A stretch of DNA of 38,929 nucleotides from a virus (Duplodnaviria; Heunggongvirae; Uroviricota; Caudoviricetes). The position numbers and the translations under genes were made by a program. The stretch is from IMG/VR virus record IMGVR_UViG_3300045836_000108, positions 64,001-102,929 of that record. The stretch is one strand, 5' to 3'. The notes below the pieces were generated by a model. It had not been told where the DNA came from and searched no databases. It worked only from the letters and a program-made list of their open reading frames with translations. Numbering within the stretch: the stretch's first letter is position 1; the number at the start of each line of letters is the position of its first letter. Shown here in pieces: positions 2,802 to 20,445 of the stretch.

Positions 2802-4433
2802 CTACAGCTCCCACGGCCAACCGGCGTCGTGGCCCCGCGACAGCAAGTCCATCATCTTGAACATGGCGTCGCTGAACCCGCCGATCTCGTACCGGTTCGG
2901 AGCCGACGTGTTGATGGTTGCCTTCTCGTAGCCGTTGGTGTTGATGCCGAACATCGGTACGTCCGGCGGCAGCGTCTCCGACACAGACTGCCTGCCGTAG
3001 GACCACGCCTGCATGTCGGAGACGATGATCACGCGCTTGTGGATCGTTTCCCGGTACGTGGCCCTCAGAGCCTCTACGGTGCGGGTGCCGTGGCCAACGG
3101 AGCCGTTCTTGGCCTTGAACGCTTCGATCTGACGCAGCGCGCTGCCAGCCTTGTTAATGTTGTGCGGGAACTGGCCGTCGGCGAACCCGATCAGGTCCAC
3201 CTCGTTACCGCGCATCGCCAACGCCACGCCGATCAGAGCGCCCACGTCCTCGTGCGTCACCTGCGACTTGGAGGAAACCCGACCCTGCATGGAACCAGAG
3301 GTGTCCACCAACACCAGGCTGCGCCCGTCCAGCTTAGGAAGCGCGGAACACGCAGCATCCAAGCCCTTGTCCAGGGCGTGGCCCCAACGCAGCGACGGCG
3401 CTGCCCGGTACGCCGACAGCAGCCGGTACGGAAACACCCGTGCCTTGCGGATGTCCTCCGGGTCGGAAAGCCGCTCGCACACCGCCTTGGCGACGTCGTC
3501 GGACACCCCGGCCACGTCGAAGTTCCGCAGGTTCCGCATCAAGGCAAACGCCCCCATGGCCGGGATGATCGCTTCCCAAGCGGCCTTGTCCATCGGCCCC
3601 TGGAGCCAACCGGCCAGAGCCTCCCACGTCATGCCAGCCTCGATCAGACGCTGCGACGCGTCCTTGGAGCGGACCAGCTTGCGGCGCTCCGGAACCGGCA
3701 TAGCCATCAGGGCCTGCCGCGCCATCAGGGTCTTGTTGCCCTCCGGCAGCCGGGCGTCCGGACGGTTGTGACGCTTGTCGATGATGTACCGGAACAGTTC
3801 GCCCTGGTAGGACTTGTCCCTGGCCGGGGACGGGTGGGTCAGCTCCAGAACGTCAGCGAACCGGTAGCCGCTGTCCGAGTCCCACTTCAGGAAGTTCTTG
3901 CCGGTGTACAGCTCCTGAACAGCGTCGGCCACACCGCGCTTCACCGGCTTGGGGATGCGGCGGCCGAAGCGGGAAGTCCAGTACGCCAGCAGCTCACCCT
4001 GTTCGTCGGCGCGGACGCAGGCGGCCTTGATGATCCGCCGGTTGAGTCCGTCATTTTCCTGCGGCACGCCCGGCAGAGGCTCCTCGTACAGGGCCAGACG
4101 GGCGTGCACGGCCTCACACGCCGCGACGATGGATGCGGACCGCATGTTGGCCTTGTCGCGGAGCCACGTCACGAAATCCAGCGTCCAGCTGCCGTCCGCG
4201 ACGGCGACCTTGCGGACCAGTTCCCGGTACCGCTGATCACGGGTGTTGGCGTCCTCATAGAACGTGGCCTCGCCCACCATGTTGGTGACGGCCAACAGAA
4301 CCAGAGCCGACTTGTCGTCGTGGACCCACGCCTTGCCGCCTTCGTGGCTGACGGTCTGGACGCCGGTGTTCCCCATGGGCGACTTGGCCGGGTGGACGTA
4401 CGGCTTGGCTTCATTGGTGTTGAACTTGGCCAT
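2802..4433 (-). CDS. rsr: Ro60/Rsr orthologue (TROVE domain plus C-terminal vWA, 543 aa)
   Basis: TROVE hallmarks EATFYE, WLRDKANMRS, RRIPKPVKRGVADA, MTWEAL, MGAFALMRNLRNF, FPYRLLSAY; vWA MIDAS LVDTSGSM, GHGT, IIVSDMQ; RBS AAGGAGG. Confidence 0.95.
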   Translation of the reverse strand: MAKFNTNEAKPYVHPAKSPMGNTGVQTVSHEGGKAWVHDDKSALVLLAVTNMVGEATFYEDANTRDQRYRELVRKVAVADGSWTLDFVTWLRDKANMRSASIVAACEAVHARLALYEEPLPGVPQENDGLNRRIIKAACVRADEQGELLAYWTSRFGRRIPKPVKRGVADAVQELYTGKNFLKWDSDSGYRFADVLELTHPSPARDKSYQGELFRYIIDKRHNRPDARLPEGNKTLMARQALMAMPVPERRKLVRSKDASQRLIEAGMTWEALAGWLQGPMDKAAWEAIIPAMGAFALMRNLRNFDVAGVSDDVAKAVCERLSDPEDIRKARVFPYRLLSAYRAAPSLRWGHALDKGLDAACSALPKLDGRSLVLVDTSGSMQGRVSSKSQVTHEDVGALIGVALAMRGNEVDLIGFADGQFPHNINKAGSALRQIEAFKAKNGSVGHGTRTVEALRATYRETIHKRVIIVSDMQAWSYGRQSVSETLPPDVPMFGINTNGYEKATINTSAPNRYEIGGFSDAMFKMMDLLSRGHDAGWPWEL

Positions 4434-4599: not shown

Positions 4600-4738
4600 C
4601 CTCCCGAGATCCAATCGGCTGCGGTCAGCAGGGCCGGAGTCGAACCGGCGACCTCCGCCTTACCTTGGCGGTGCTCTACCACCTGAGCTACCCGGATGAA
4701 GTGGTATCCGAAGTAACCGCTGCCTGCGCACCGGGAGG
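4600..4738 (-). ncRNA. Y-RNA-like element Y2 enclosing a normal-order tRNA-Thr(GGU)-like body
   Basis: Terminal stem CCUCCCG/CGGGAGG with Y motifs; interior D arm GCUC/GAGC, anticodon arm CCGCC-AAGGUAA-GGCGG, T arm GCCGG-UUCGACU-CCGGC, only 4-bp acceptor. Confidence 0.75.
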
Positions 4739-15090: not shown

Positions 15091-15124
15091 GCAGCGCCGT
15101 TTCCCTACGCGGGAACGGCGCTGC
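15091..15124. terminator. hairpin at the convergence of plus and minus genes
   Basis: gcagcgccgtttccc/gggaacggcgctgc, 14 bp with one bulge. Confidence 0.55.
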
Positions 15125-16013
15125 TGCGCTTCTCCCGCACGTTCACGGCCCGGTCCAGCTCCTCGTCAGCGGTGCCGCACTCGGTGACCTTGGTTCGGAA
15201 GTAGCTGACGATGCTGATGCGTTCTGCGCCGCAGTCCTTGCAGTACTTGTCTAGGGTGTTCCCGCACTTGCAGACGATGGCGGTGTTGCCGTGCCACTCG
15301 TGGGCGTTCATGAGGATCAGGTCGCCGTCCTGAAGGTCCACGGCCACCCGGTACTCCGGGAAAGTCAGACGTCCCCCGGTGAACTCGCCGCGCCGAATAC
15401 AGGCGATTGTAGAGAACCCTTTGTCCAGGTCTCCCTTGTCGGTGTGGACTCCGGTGGGGTACGTGTTGTTGACGGTGACGGTGGAGAACGGCGTGCCCGG
15501 CACCACCCACTCCGGCTTGGATGCCTTGGCCTCGGCAAGTTGGTTGGCGTAGCGGTCTGGGACGTACTCCTCCAGGTACTTGGCGACCTCCATCAGGAAC
15601 GGCTGGAGGCTCTGCCACTGGGGCAGGTTGTCCCCAGTCCAGGCGGTGAGGCGGCAGTACCGGTAGATGCCACCTGGGTCGATGGCGCCGATGATGGCGG
15701 ACGGCACGTCTTTGGCGTAGGTGCGGTTTTGGCCGTTGCGCTTGACGCGGACGCTTCCGGCGGCCATGCCCCTGTTCTTGGACACGGCGTTCCAGAGGCT
15801 GTGGAAGATCGCATACACCTCGTCGGTGATGGCGTCTTTCATCGCGGCGGGCAGGTACACGCACAGCGGTGAGCCGTCTGGTTTGCGGACGTAGCTGGGG
15901 CCGGTCAGCAGGATGTTGTAGTCGGCGTCCGTGAGGATCTTCGCGACCTTCTCGTCCATCTCCTGCTTGGAGATCTTGGACCGCAGGCGGACGTCAACAA
16001 GCGGGATGGTCAC
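15105..16013 (-). CDS. TET/JBP-family 2OG-Fe(II) 5-methylpyrimidine dioxygenase (302 aa)
   Basis: TPFSTVTVNN..T.VHTDKGD (HxD), GG.L.FPEY..AV....GDLILMNAHEWHGNT (distal His), RISIVSYFR (2OG-binding Arg). Confidence 0.85.
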   Translation of the reverse strand: MTIPLVDVRLRSKISKQEMDEKVAKILTDADYNILLTGPSYVRKPDGSPLCVYLPAAMKDAITDEVYAIFHSLWNAVSKNRGMAAGSVRVKRNGQNRTYAKDVPSAIIGAIDPGGIYRYCRLTAWTGDNLPQWQSLQPFLMEVAKYLEEYVPDRYANQLAEAKASKPEWVVPGTPFSTVTVNNTYPTGVHTDKGDLDKGFSTIACIRRGEFTGGRLTFPEYRVAVDLQDGDLILMNAHEWHGNTAIVCKCGNTLDKYCKDCGAERISIVSYFRTKVTECGTADEELDRAVNVREKRSSAVPA

Positions 16014-16558
16014 CGCAGAACCTCCAATGCCGGAACAGCTTCTATGAGGGCTTCAACAAGTTCTTGGGGCGTGCGCATGCCGTCCAGGTCCCAGCCTCCG
16101 ATGGCGGCGCGGAGGTTCGCTGCCCGCGTGGAGGCGCCCTTGATCCACTTCTCGTCCTGGTTGCTGCCGCGCTTCCGGCGGCGTGCGTCCAACTCCTGCC
16201 GGGTGGCGTCGAGGTAGAACGTATGCACGGCGTATCCGGCGCCTCTAGCGGCCTCTAGGAAGCCGCGCGTGGCCAGCCGTGCCCCTTCCCCAAGAATGAG
16301 TCCGTACGGCTGCGTACGGAGCCAGGAGATGGCTTGCGGCTGGATGCTCATCGACATGGCGTCGGTGCCGGAGAAGGCTTGCCGACGTCGGCCAAGCTCC
16401 ACGCCGACGATCTCCGGAACGTAGTGGCCTTCACGGAGCAGAAGGTCATGGGGGACTTTGGATTCGCTTGTAAGGCGTCCGCAGTTCTTGGTCAGCTCCG
16501 CCATCAGCGTGGATTTCCCGACTCCGGGAGGACCGTACAGGTAGACCAGCGCGTTCAC
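16010..16558 (-). CDS. P-loop nucleotide/DNA kinase of base-modification clusters (182 aa)
   Basis: Walker A GPPGVGKST; FSGTDAMSMSIQP; LGEGARL; lid RRRKRGSNQ; GTG 16558 overlaps the upstream stop. Confidence 0.75.
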   Translation of the reverse strand: MNALVYLYGPPGVGKSTLMAELTKNCGRLTSESKVPHDLLLREGHYVPEIVGVELGRRRQAFSGTDAMSMSIQPQAISWLRTQPYGLILGEGARLATRGFLEAARGAGYAVHTFYLDATRQELDARRRKRGSNQDEKWIKGASTRAANLRAAIGGWDLDGMRTPQELVEALIEAVPALEVLR

Positions 16559-17361
16559 CACGAGTTCACCATCTCCTCTGCCTCGGCCGGTGCCAGGGCG
16601 TAGCCGGTCCGGTGGTAGCCGGTCAGGACATAGTGGCCACGGCTGTGCTGGAACGCCCGGGGCTCGGTTTGGATCCTCTGTCCGTACACCGGCCTCCACG
16701 GACCGGAGGAGTCGCCAGCAGTGATCCCCAGATCGTTGGCGATGTCCAGCATCTTCTTGGCCTGTTCCCGGGCGCCCTCCACCGTCGTGGACGACGAGGA
16801 ACCAAGCCGGGCGCGTCCTCCGACGACACCGGCGGTGAGGGTCTTGTACGGGGCGATGTAGTGGACCCGCAGGCTCGGTTGGGCAAGCCTACGTGGGCTG
16901 GCTACCCACGTGACGCCGTGGGTGATCTTGCCGTCGCCGTGGCTGGACCCAACAGCTACAACGACCTTGTCGCCTTTGAGGACACGGCCATCGGCAAGGG
17001 AAACCTCATTGCGGGAACACCTGGACAGGATTCCCTTCTCGACGCCGGAGGTGAACAGCGGCGCAGCCGGGTCAAGCATCCGCCAGTCCTTGTCGCGTTT
17101 GACGCCTTGCCGCTGGTAGCTGGAGACGTCTGCACCTTCCAGCATCTCCACGCCCCACGCCTTGTACATCTCCATGCTGCGGTCCCACAGGCGGGCGTCG
17201 CGGGGAGTCTTGGTGTGGTAGCCGCGCCGAAGAACGGCGGTGGCGGCCAGCGACGACGGCGCGTTGCCATCAGAGATGTGGACGGTTTCAAAGCCTCGCC
17301 GGTGACAAGCCCGAACCACGGAGCAGCCCGCAATACCTGCCCCGACAACAATCACCCTCAT
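16555..17361 (-). CDS. FAD-dependent oxidoreductase, DAO/glycine-oxidase-like (268 aa)
   Basis: Rossmann VIVVGAGIAG at the N-terminus; C-terminal TGYHRTGYALAP. Confidence 0.8.
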   Translation of the reverse strand: MRVIVVGAGIAGCSVVRACHRRGFETVHISDGNAPSSLAATAVLRRGYHTKTPRDARLWDRSMEMYKAWGVEMLEGADVSSYQRQGVKRDKDWRMLDPAAPLFTSGVEKGILSRCSRNEVSLADGRVLKGDKVVVAVGSSHGDGKITHGVTWVASPRRLAQPSLRVHYIAPYKTLTAGVVGGRARLGSSSSTTVEGAREQAKKMLDIANDLGITAGDSSGPWRPVYGQRIQTEPRAFQHSRGHYVLTGYHRTGYALAPAEAEEMVNSW

Positions 17362-18227
17362 GTGCGCTCCAAGATCTTGCCGGTGTCGCGGTATGCGCGT
17401 TTGCGGACAGGGTCCGGGCCGGTCCAGCCGTAAATCTCACCCAGGTACGGGTTGGGAAGGGTGTGGAACCGGGCTTCCAGAGCTGACTGGGTCCACGCCG
17501 ACTGCACGTCCAACAGCTGCCGCAGCATCTGGTCGATGTCGTGGCCGACGTAGTACCGGCCGGTAGCCAGGGCATGGAAGTCGCACAAGGTCGTCTCCAC
17601 CTCCTCCACCGGGGCGTGGAGTCCTTCCTGCTCCAAGCGGCGGCAGATGATCTCCGAGACCTTGTCCAGCTCCCGCGCAGCCTCCTTGCTGTTTCCCTTA
17701 GGCAAGTCCCGCAGCAGCAGATCCATGCCTTGACGGGGGCCGGACGAGTGGGCGTGGCCCATGTCGGTGGCCTCCACCCGAACGCTACAAACCTTCCACA
17801 GAAGCTCAGACGTTTTGAATGAGGCCCACCGGCCGTTGCCCCAGATATCCAACAGCGCGTCGTTGAGTTTCCCCCAGGCGTCCCGGGGACCCGTCGAGCC
17901 TTGGATAGCGTTCCTGATCCACCGTTCCCATCCTCCAGGCAGAGCCTCCACGGACCGGAGTCCGTCTAAGTGCCTGGCAAGCTTGCGGGCATCCCGGTGT
18001 CCACGGCGTTCCGTCGCGCACGGCAGAGGGCCCTTCTCGCCCAGGAATGCTGCCAGCCCGGAGCCCAGGTGGTAGTACGCGACGTACCGCATCACCAGCC
18101 GGATGCGGTCCTCGGCGGACAGGCCGTGGTACACGGCCAACTGACGCAGCACCGGGTACACCGGGTCAACGTCTTGTGTCTCCAACGCCAGGCGGTGGAA
18201 CCGGGCGTAGTCGTCCCAGATAGCCAT
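17358..18227 (-). CDS. amino acid:DNA transferase (aGPT-Pplase2-like, HhH-glycosylase fold) (289 aa)
   Basis: DVDPVY, TERRGHR, GNGRWASFK, EVETTLCDF....GRYYVGHDIDQM. Confidence 0.75.
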   Translation of the reverse strand: MAIWDDYARFHRLALETQDVDPVYPVLRQLAVYHGLSAEDRIRLVMRYVAYYHLGSGLAAFLGEKGPLPCATERRGHRDARKLARHLDGLRSVEALPGGWERWIRNAIQGSTGPRDAWGKLNDALLDIWGNGRWASFKTSELLWKVCSVRVEATDMGHAHSSGPRQGMDLLLRDLPKGNSKEAARELDKVSEIICRRLEQEGLHAPVEEVETTLCDFHALATGRYYVGHDIDQMLRQLLDVQSAWTQSALEARFHTLPNPYLGEIYGWTGPDPVRKRAYRDTGKILERT

Positions 18228-18955
18228 CAGACGGGGCTGTGGATGGCGTTGTAGTGCTTGCAGTGGTCGCAGTCGTCGCCGTGTTCTGCGCGGGCTGCCA
18301 CGGTCAGCTTCAGGCCGCGTGCGGCCCGCAGCAGGATCTCCCCGTTGGTGAGGTCGCTGTTTGCGTCCAGGGAGGACCGCAGACCGGCCAGGTGCCGGTG
18401 GAGTTCGTCGTGGTCGTCCTGGGGGAGGATGATCACGGTCTCGCGGATGCCGCGTGCCGCCAGGGATTCCCCGGAGCCCAGTTCGGAGCGGGCCTGCGCC
18501 TCCTCCGGCGTCTCCGCGTACTGCGCCTGCGTGGCGACGTACGGCGTCTCAGCTACCTGGTCCAGGGCTGCCAGCAGGTCGTCCAGGTCGTCGGCGTCCC
18601 AACCGGTACCGACGAAGTCCCCGTCCAGCTGCTCCAGCAGCGCAGCCAGGGACGCGTCATCGTAGCCTGCGCGTTCGCCGATGCGGTTGGCGGCCAGGTT
18701 GATCCAGAGGGCTTCATCGTCGGAGCACTCGATGACCTTGCACTCGACAGTGTCCCAGTCCTCCAGGCGGGCTGCCTCGGCGGTGCCGTGGCCGGAGAGG
18801 ATGGTGTAGACGCCTGCGTGTTCCCGTACGACGATCGGCTGAAACTGTCCGCGCCGGAGGCTGCGGCGCAGCTCGTCCAGGTCGTGTTCCTTGGCGTTGC
18901 CGGGGAATTCGTGGAGCTTAGCCAGCGGGAGGTTGGCGAACTCGATGTGCTTCAT
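18227..18955 (-). CDS. ParB/Srx N-terminal domain protein (242 aa)
   Basis: L..L..FPGNAKEHD...L..SL..GQFQPIVV....ILSGHGT.EAA, NLAANRIGE.AGYD. Confidence 0.85.
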   Translation of the reverse strand: MKHIEFANLPLAKLHEFPGNAKEHDLDELRRSLRRGQFQPIVVREHAGVYTILSGHGTAEAARLEDWDTVECKVIECSDDEALWINLAANRIGERAGYDDASLAALLEQLDGDFVGTGWDADDLDDLLAALDQVAETPYVATQAQYAETPEEAQARSELGSGESLAARGIRETVIILPQDDHDELHRHLAGLRSSLDANSDLTNGEILLRAARGLKLTVAARAEHGDDCDHCKHYNAIHSPV

Positions 18956-20322
18956 ACGTCGTCCTGTCCTTCAAGGGTGTTCAGTGCGGAGTCAACATCG
19001 ACTTCACCGCAGAGCTTGGCGGCAGCGTTGGGGCTGCCTTTGATGAACACCAGGACTTCCTGGTGGTTTCGGATCAGAAGCCGCGTGCGGGGGAACGTGT
19101 AGCCAGCCCGGATTGCGGCGGTGCCGATCGAGTTGATCAGAACTGCCTCGGAGTGTGTTCTCAAGCCCGCGTCGGCTGCGGCCTTGCAGGTAACGGCCCG
19201 GAGGTCGCGCAGCCCTCCGCGCTTGTCCCGGACGGAGCCTACGACGATGACTGCGAACCTGTCGTTTTTCAAGGTCCGGAACGACTCGCGCAGGATGTGC
19301 ATGTACGCTTCATCGAACGCGTCCGTATCCATGTTGGATAGGTCTTTGTCGTTGTCGGAGTACTTCTCCAGGTCGTAGTACGGCGGGCAGGTGAACACCA
19401 TGTCAAACTGTTCGTCGCGGAGGATCGAGGCCTCGTATCGGGAGTCTCCCTGCATCCACACCGGGACCTGTGTTCCCCACCGTTTCCGGTAGGCCCAGGC
19501 GGTGTCGAAGTTCAAGTCCACCTGCTCCTGCGACAGGTCCACGCCGCTGTATTTGAGGCCTAGTTGGGTGGCTACTAGGCCGCGCGGAGGGCCACCGGCG
19601 AAGGGGTCGAAAACGTGGCCGCCTTTGGGGCAGAACCAGATGTAGCACAGCTCCGCCAATACAGGATCGAACACGGACGTGCCGGTGGTGAACCCTTTCT
19701 TCACCAGGTAGTCGGCTGCCTTCACGGGAATCTTGTAGGACGTGGCGCCTTCCCGTGCCTCGTCCCGGGCTTCCAGTCCGCCGACGCCCCGGTCAAGCCA
19801 CTGGCGTTTGCGGCCTAGCCACCAGCCGGTGCGTGCGTCGATGACGGAGAACGGCGGGGCCAGGAAGCGCTCTGAGAGGCTGCCTGCCGCCACGGGAGGC
19901 TGCTCCGTAGCTAGTTCCTGGTCGGCTTGTTCCAGAGCCTCCAGCGTGGTCTGTATGTCGTATCCGAGCAGGTCTGGGTCAACGCCTTCATCAAGCAGAC
20001 CGGCGAGGAGTTCGTTGAGTTGTTCGTCGTCGTAGTCGCCAAGGTCGGAGGTGCGGTTGTCCGCGACCATGATGGACTTGGCCGTTGTGTCGTCCACGTC
20101 CAAGACGACGGCGGAGACCTCTGCGCGCCCCAGCTGTTTCATCGCTTTCCAGGTGTGGTTGCCCGCGATGATGTAGCCGGTGCTGGCTTGGACGACGATG
20201 GGCTTGTATTGGCCCAGGGCTTCGATGGATTTGGCGATGGCTTCGGTGTTGCCGCGCCTGGGGTTGTCGGGATGCGGCTGAACAGCGTCGATGGCTAGCG
20301 TCCGAACCTGCTCAGGCTGCAT
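18952..20322 (-). CDS. ParB/Srx domain fused to an amino-DNA methyltransferase (N4-C/N6-A type) (456 aa)
   Basis: PHPDNPRRG..GQYKPIVV..IIAGNHTW, DNRTSD; SAM motif FDPFAGG; catalytic FTCPPY; GGAGG RBS before ATG 20322. Confidence 0.85.
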   Translation of the reverse strand: MQPEQVRTLAIDAVQPHPDNPRRGNTEAIAKSIEALGQYKPIVVQASTGYIIAGNHTWKAMKQLGRAEVSAVVLDVDDTTAKSIMVADNRTSDLGDYDDEQLNELLAGLLDEGVDPDLLGYDIQTTLEALEQADQELATEQPPVAAGSLSERFLAPPFSVIDARTGWWLGRKRQWLDRGVGGLEARDEAREGATSYKIPVKAADYLVKKGFTTGTSVFDPVLAELCYIWFCPKGGHVFDPFAGGPPRGLVATQLGLKYSGVDLSQEQVDLNFDTAWAYRKRWGTQVPVWMQGDSRYEASILRDEQFDMVFTCPPYYDLEKYSDNDKDLSNMDTDAFDEAYMHILRESFRTLKNDRFAVIVVGSVRDKRGGLRDLRAVTCKAAADAGLRTHSEAVLINSIGTAAIRAGYTFPRTRLLIRNHQEVLVFIKGSPNAAAKLCGEVDVDSALNTLEGQDDV

Positions 20323-20445
20323 GCGTCCTCCGGTACTTCCCTGCGTTTGATCACGAGTGTAGAGCACCTGGTGGCGACACGGTGTCGTGTGGCGGTGTGG
20401 CCGTTTCTGAGTATGTAAAAGATCTTGGATAAAGTTCGCGAACCC

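Follow-up and report, generated by a model that had tools for sequence, protein, structure and literature searches.

The window, the whole 38.9-kb stretch of DNA analyzed here, is the right-hand part of a 102,929-bp IMG/VR phage record, which is complete, carries direct terminal repeats and derives from a soil phage. Its minus strand encodes, in this order, a 3′-phosphatase, a SLOG protein, 18 tRNA genes, four Y-like RNAs, Ro60, a terminator and an RNA ligase. Y2, the second of the four Y-type RNAs, occupies positions 4600–4738 of the minus strand (139 bases), and the Ro60/TROVE open reading frame (4433–2802) begins on the same strand 167 nt downstream of it. The features of this island are as follows.

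12552–11455, minus strand: HAD/PNKP-type 3′-phosphatase
Between the 3′-phosphatase and the tRNA array, minus strand: SLOG protein
9776–5104, minus strand: 18 tRNA genes
Between 5056 and 4468, minus strand: four Y-like RNAs (Y1–Y4)
2802–4433, minus strand: Ro60 gene, 543 aa, TROVE plus vWA (Pfam TROVE E = 2e-13, VWA_2); presumed protein partner of Y2
2795–2764, minus strand: strong intrinsic terminator directly after the Ro60 stop codon, the sole one in this run of genes
2668–1427, minus strand: RNA ligase

No intrinsic terminator was found between the tRNA array, the Y RNAs and Ro60, the first being the one at 2795–2764, which suggests that all three are transcribed as a single long precursor. 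Among the other Y RNAs of the locus, the Rfam YrlA model weakly matches Y4 (25.3 bits, full length) and Y3 (21.2 bits), and the sole match of the Deinococcus Y RNA model (RF01053) is a weak one to Y1 (17.7 bits). Elsewhere in the window, a minus-strand gene run (15105–20367) encodes a Tet/JBP-type oxygenase, P-loop nucleotide kinase 3, an FAD oxidoreductase, an amino acid:DNA transferase and two ParB_N proteins, one of them fused to an N6/N4 DNA methylase; this run looks like a thymidine hypermodification cluster.

Read 5′ to 3′, Y2 consists of the following parts.

4731–4738, minus strand: outer Y stem, 5′ strand CCUCCCGG, pairing with 4600–4608; helix 1 of the family model, covarying at 2 pairs
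4722–4732, minus strand: GGUGCGCAGG, 5′-strand motif common to all Y RNAs of the locus and presumed Ro60 docking site
4716–4724, minus strand: inner Y stem, 5′ strand GGC-A-GCGGU, pairing with 4617–4626; helix 2, with compensatory changes at 7/8 pairs
4710–4715, minus strand: UACUUC motif, common to Y RNAs of this Ro60 clade and set by the pattern used in the search; the acceptor hairpin starts within its final bases
4706–4712, minus strand: UUCGGAU, counterpart of tRNA positions 66–72 (3′ acceptor strand), lying upstream and pairing 7/7 with 4691–4697
4698–4705, minus strand: loop of the acceptor hairpin, ACCA (equivalent of discriminator plus CCA), then linker CUUC
4691–4697, minus strand: AUCCGGG, tRNA positions 1–7 (5′ acceptor strand)
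4672–4690, minus strand: U8 A9, D arm GCUC-AGGUGGUA-GAGC, A26 (Rfam tRNA alignment); G15 pairs with C48
4655–4671, minus strand: anticodon-like arm CCGCC-AAGGUAA-GGCGG, GGU with A32 A33; the stem covaries at all 5 pairs
4650–4654, minus strand: variable loop AGGUC (AGGYY in 16/16 members)
4633–4649, minus strand: T arm GCCGG-UUCGACU-CCGGC (Rfam tRNA alignment); 2 pairs with compensatory changes
4627–4632, minus strand: 3′ linker CCUGCU, whose CCU can pair with G5–G7 as an alternative to the hairpin base (CCY in 15/16 members)
4600–4626, minus strand: inner and outer Y stems, 3′ strands GACCGCAGCC-GAUUGGAUCU-CGGGAGG

The ends of Y2 pair with each other (CCUCCCGG/CUCGGGAGG) and the stem covaries, bearing out the enclosing Y stem that an earlier note had described; the minus-strand sequence likewise has its D arm, its anticodon arm, the AGGUC variable loop and finally the T arm in tRNA order, as that note had read them. 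The two halves of the stem match short Y RNAs of other Ro60 loci. The GGUGCGCAGG motif was found in Y1–Y4 and in all related loci, and its Y4 copy is aligned by Rfam to the 5′ motif of YrlA; within the Y2 family the motif was fixed by the search pattern, so its invariance there is no independent evidence.

ARAGORN calls a tRNA-Thr(ggt) at 4623–4698, and the Rfam tRNA model (RF00005) scores Y2 at 40.2 bits, above the 29-bit gathering threshold, in a local match to model positions 4–67 only. The match stops there because the would-be acceptor stem is topped by three mismatches. The expectation that a scanner would report a Thr tRNA and miss the enclosing stem was thus largely realized. A canonical tRNA has a 7-bp acceptor stem formed by its 5′ and 3′ ends, with discriminator and CCA, whereas the 7-bp helix of Y2 uses an upstream strand. 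Likewise, in place of the canonical 7-nt anticodon loop with Y32 U33, Y2 has AAGGUAA with A32 A33, confirming that the loop begins AA instead of YU.

To collect relatives, we searched with the pattern GGTGCG-N11-12-TACTTC-N-GTAGCTCA, which returned five viral contigs with the Y2 layout; a near-identical pattern ending in GGTAGCTCA returned ten further distinct metagenome sequences. Together with Y2, the family comprises 16 distinct sequences from phage and metagenome contigs. As the patterns fixed GGTGCG, TACTTC and GGTAGCTCA, the invariance of these elements is by construction, and more divergent members may exist. Of the 15 members other than Y2, 11 have Ro60 on the contig that carries the Y2-type RNA; the four without it are short contigs or have no Ro60 match in the part retrieved. 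A covariance model (R1) built from six relatives scored the 16 members at 105–151 bits (Y2, 135), against at most 55 bits for all other Y RNAs and tRNAs in 39 sources. Pairing over the family structure reaches 97.1%, and 21 of its 35 pairs show compensatory changes; none of 500 shuffles matched this, and pairing fell to 36–53% when partners were slid. In one metagenome member (L080), whose Ro60 is 69% identical, the whole anticodon arm is the same as in Y2.

Wider searches returned no further members. The metagenome pattern, run on 185,579 species genomes, gave five chance matches in coding DNA and no real member; a looser pattern (TGCG...GGTAGCNCA) gave 37 viral stretches, of which the real ones were the same five; and among the 80 loci listed for a pattern ending in RCCA, none scored with the covariance model. 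R1 identified no member in 151 sampled genomes of the class containing Amycolatopsis, where its best match (L100) was an ordinary tRNA-Phe with forced flanks, nor next to Ro60 in any of six cultured actinophages (GiJojo, BRock, VanLee, Atuin, Kela, Rabbitrun). BLASTN of the Y cluster against cultured phages gave generic tRNA similarity only, and the match to the Myrna 'tRNA-OTHER' was an ordinary suppressor-type tRNA in an array.

In most of the related IMG/VR loci collected through Ro60, that gene is preceded by a short Y RNA and a classical YrlA. In L080, L084, L086, L034 and L037/L038, six to ten Y-like RNAs stand in tandem among tRNAs with one Y2-type copy per contig, and phage Ro60 loci seem to carry panels of differently wired tRNA mimics. 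A Y RNA adjoining Ro60 in another contig (L033:2748–2859, minus strand) has the shared stem and a D arm and is without a T arm, a further module type. In L010–L031, about 100–180 nt upstream of Ro60 (e.g. L029:2827–2898), ARAGORN labels the classical YrlA as tRNA-Ser(gct), Ile or Asn; these calls on Streptomyces-like prophage contigs arise because a 5-bp stem with a CUGCUAA-type loop, followed by the T arm, mimics half a tRNA. Between YrlA and Ro60 in L022 (2786–2881) lies an odd tRNA-like element with acceptor GGGAGCU/AGCUCCC, a T arm and a long internal insert, reported by ARAGORN as 'tRNA-???' with a 4-base anticodon.

The earlier note had drawn Y2 as an unpermuted body whose 4-bp acceptor (CGGG/CCUG) continues into the Y stem. 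We anchored the sequences on UAGCUCA (positions 8–14) and on the T loop, and compared the seven bases before U8 with two candidate partners. The upstream partner pairs at 7/7 positions in 13 sequences, at 6/7 in two and at 5/7 in one (n = 16), and the sequences so paired differ widely (AUCC, GACA, AGGG, CAGC, AUCG, UGAG, AAUC and others). On the model alignment this acceptor hairpin is 98% paired, with compensatory changes at 5/7 pairs; the Y2 copy is UUCGGAU-ACCA-CUUC-AUCCGGG, with 7 bp. RCCA directly follows the upstream strand in 15/16 members and is itself followed by a linker of 4–8 nt. With the downstream partner, the seven bases 3′ of the T stem, only GGG/CCY pairs consistently, there is no covariation beyond it, and positions 1–4 pair in 21 of 64 cells, about the level of chance. 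An acceptor made with the 3′ side can have only 4 bp in Y2 and 2–4 contiguous bp across the family; CGGG/CCUG can be drawn, but it is not conserved, its fourth pair being already absent from the closest relatives of Y2 (L080 and L086). In L090, position 5 is an A, which faces a U upstream and a C downstream. Nearest-neighbour energies are lower for the hairpin model than for the downstream model in 16/16 members, and the unconstrained minimum free energy fold of Y2 (z = −2.1) pairs UUCGGAU with AUCCGGG, not CGGG with CCUG.

The conserved closed acceptor hairpin, formed with the upstream strand and followed by RCCA, indicates that the Y2 body is not unpermuted: as judged from these pairings, it is a tRNA-plus-CCA that has been circularly permuted and opened between positions 65 and 66, at the junction of T stem and acceptor. 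The strands then run 66′–72′, RCCA, linker and 1–65, and the Y stem is attached by UAC(U) at the 5′ end of this body and by CCY... at its 3′ end. Nor does the acceptor continue into the Y stem, from which it is separated by the hairpin and the UAC linker on the 5′ side and by CCUGCU on the 3′ side. Since the CCY 3′ of the T stem is conserved and able to pair with G5–G7, it could swap with the wobble-rich hairpin base to give a hybrid or switching acceptor helix.

The family retains the nucleotides of the tRNA elbow (U8, A14, G18 G19, AGGYY and UUCGA), the GG of the D loop and the UUCGA of the T loop being present in 16/16 members. As Levitt pair, 12 members have G15:C48 and four have A15:U48; these four form one sub-group, so that the switch may have been a single evolutionary event. 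The anticodon loops vary (AAGGUAA, UUGAAAA, six-base loops, GCGA and UUCG tetraloops; 2–8 nt in relatives), the arm remaining 14–18 nt long, and the first three acceptor pairs vary freely. The suggestion that Y2 keeps the shape of elbow and anticodon therefore holds for the elbow, with its conserved D and T loops and Levitt pair, and fails for the anticodon loop, where only the length of the arm is kept. The absence of an acceptor built from free 5′ and 3′ ends, together with A33, supports the view that Y2 is disabled for decoding. A33 and the freedom of the family's anticodon loops to vary indicate that Y2 does not decode, and nothing in the aligned members indicates a fixed amino-acid identity or codon reading in the family. 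We also considered that the phage ligase re-joins the permuted tRNA into a decoding one, and rejected this on the ground that relatives have tetraloops for the anticodon loop.

The nearest described RNAs are the YrlA Y RNAs (RF02553; S. Typhimurium, M. smegmatis, actinophages), which contain tRNA-like modules (PMC4201824), fold as a true L shape (Wang et al. 2018, 10.1101/312249) and receive modifications from TruB and DusA (PMC4201824; 10.1101/312249). Like Y2, YrlA lies beside Ro60 on the same strand and has a basal stem with a related 5′ motif, a T arm, a D arm, a closed acceptor hairpin and tertiary pairs of the tRNA kind. The nucleotides that make such tertiary contacts (Levitt 15:48, G18 G19, T-loop UUCRA) are all present in the Y2 family. 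The order of modules is different: YrlA runs T arm, acceptor hairpin, D arm, with the Y stem in place of the anticodon stem and without an anticodon loop, whereas Y2 and its 15 relatives run acceptor hairpin, D arm, full anticodon-like arm, variable loop and T arm; in these the Y stem attaches between positions 65 and 66, and the acceptor loop encodes RCCA. Scanned over 4600–4738 at E values up to 10, RF02553 gave no match (gathering threshold 69 bits), and neither did RF01053 (80 bits). The Y2 5′ motif GGUGCG(C/A)AGG resembles the published GNCGAAN0-1G without being identical to it, and only the Y4 copy is aligned by Rfam to YrlA (25 bits); it is these motifs shared with Y4, together with the gene context, that suggest homology of the Ro-binding stem.

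Yrn1 of Deinococcus radiodurans (RF01053) can also be modelled with a tRNA-like succession of D-like, anticodon-like and T elements enclosed by its Ro-binding stem (Chen et al. 2014, PMC4201824), and it has GGUUACUUC at the same place in the RF01053 consensus. It is set apart from Y2 by its description, being without a clear D arm, with a 6-nt 'anticodon' loop, without a variable arm and with no described 7-bp acceptor hairpin with RCCA. The Yrn1 consensus GGUUACUUC-UCCAACC-UCAAU-GGG is similar to the Y2 family in its UACUUC, its loop with RCCA and its GGG, and Yrn1 may be a degenerate relative of that family.

The permuted tRNA genes of Cyanidioschyzon merolae and the two-piece tmRNA (permuted ssrA) place the CCA-bearing 3′ acceptor strand upstream of the 5′ strand, with a short loop between; processing in the intervening loop frees the CCA end, and the RNAs are aminoacylated and used on the ribosome. 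Y2 shares this arrangement, with the 3′ acceptor strand and CCA encoded before the 5′ acceptor strand and a short loop joining them, but its family has no conserved anticodon or acceptor identity and sits on a Ro60-type stem. With an ordinary phage tRNA-Thr(GGU), Y2 shares the D arm, variable loop, T arm, GGU triplet and a score beyond the Rfam tRNA threshold; it differs in A32 A33, in having neither a free-end acceptor stem nor a 3′-side trailer or CCA, and in the covarying outer stem that encloses it. Y2-type RNA is covered by no Rfam 15 family, and full-text literature searches returned only YrlA and Yrn1 papers, with no description of the Y2 layout. The family thus appears to be a conserved subclass of Y RNA of which we found no description.

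On balance, we consider it likely that Y2 is a non-coding Y RNA, that it is partner to the Ro60 encoded by the phage itself, and that it belongs to a conserved subclass in which a permuted, non-decoding tRNA module is mounted on a Ro60-type stem. A reading that keeps the wiring of the earlier note, a tRNA-Thr(GGU) recently captured into the loop of a short Y RNA, with its body in normal order and the 4-bp CGGG/CCUG acceptor stacked on the Y stem, now seems improbable. It draws on GGG/CCY pairing, possible in 15/16 members, on downstream strands that pair at 6/7 positions in L035 and L038, on full-length Rfam tRNA matches in some members (e.g. L034, 61.7 bits) and on the window's tRNA array, which has Thr(CGU) and no other Thr(GGU); a relative (L007) has both. 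Against it, the near-chance downstream pairing at positions 1–4 compares with near-perfect, covarying upstream pairing, position 5 of L090 matches the upstream base only, and the energy of the captured form lies above that of the hairpin model in every member. The layout with hairpin and RCCA is moreover common to diverged phages, whose Ro60 proteins are 37–69% identical, and so is old; its presence in 16 distinct sequences on different phage contigs makes it an established RNA class and not a recent capture. That Y2 is a tRNA-Thr(GGU) gene, whether functional or only recently decayed, whose product is trimmed to about 76 nt for translation from a precursor of which the Y-like flanks are mere parts, is more improbable still, to the point that we give it hardly any weight. 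The ARAGORN call, the Rfam tRNA score and the adjoining tRNA array speak for it, but it leaves a near-universal U33 replaced by A33, an acceptor mismatched at its top and flanks that covary as a stem, and relatives swap the anticodon loop for tetraloops with all else kept.

A different job for the same RNA is the more serious alternative, and we regard it as possible, if unlikely: Y2 would tether no repair or degradation factor and would divert, as a decoy or sponge, host defence enzymes that target tRNA (anticodon nucleases, CCA-end attackers), or would act simply as RNase P punctuation of the precursor. The setting among a phage tRNA array, an RNA ligase and a 3′-phosphatase is consistent with this, as are the several differently wired mimics in tandem here and in related contigs, and an encoded RCCA with a 7-bp acceptor is exactly what RNase P recognizes (PMC4201824). 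However, the lack of conservation in the anticodon loops speaks against a decoy for anticodon nucleases across the whole family, no defence enzyme was identified, and known Y RNAs are Ro60 tethers or gates (PMC4201824; 10.1101/312249).

As a Ro60 partner, Y2 would be cut from one long precursor running from the tRNA array to the terminator after Ro60. The basal stem, shared with Y1, Y3 and Y4, would be bound by the phage Ro60, and the L-shaped module would dock a tRNA-recognizing factor, so that the docked RNA would tether or gate Ro60 within a phage island for tRNA maintenance and repair (RNA ligase, 3′-phosphatase). [quoted passage not shown] A 7-bp acceptor helix stacked on the T stem and a correctly placed RCCA are RNase P determinants, on which grounds cleavage in the acceptor loop of Y2 is to be expected; by analogy, we give it a roughly even chance. 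RNase P would cut just 5′ of position 1, between window positions 4698 and 4697, and trimming would leave a two-piece Y2 RNA with a genome-encoded CCA-type 3′ end. A more speculative and rather doubtful extension is that RNase P and 3′ trimming turn Y2-type RNAs into two-piece Ro60 particles showing a free encoded CCA end on a full tRNA body, and that phages use them as Ro60-anchored tRNA stand-ins, which would capture or report enzymes of acceptor-end attack or repair, or deliver damaged tRNAs to the adjacent ligase and phosphatase. If this were true, these CCA-displaying particles would give Y RNAs their first defined tRNA-end function.

Mimicry of tRNA is a known trait of bacterial and phage Y RNAs. 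The Y2 family keeps every part of a tRNA, including an arm of anticodon length and an encoded RCCA, while its anticodon loop drifts, pointing to the elbow and the acceptor end as the working surface. The 65/66 junction is evidently a third place in the tRNA fold that can take the Ro60 stem, and this wiring predicts RNase P cleavage in the RCCA loop. For annotation there is a warning, as tRNA scanners label both Y2-type RNAs and classical YrlAs as tRNA genes. Y2 would thus offer a new handle on the role of bacterial and phage Y RNAs.
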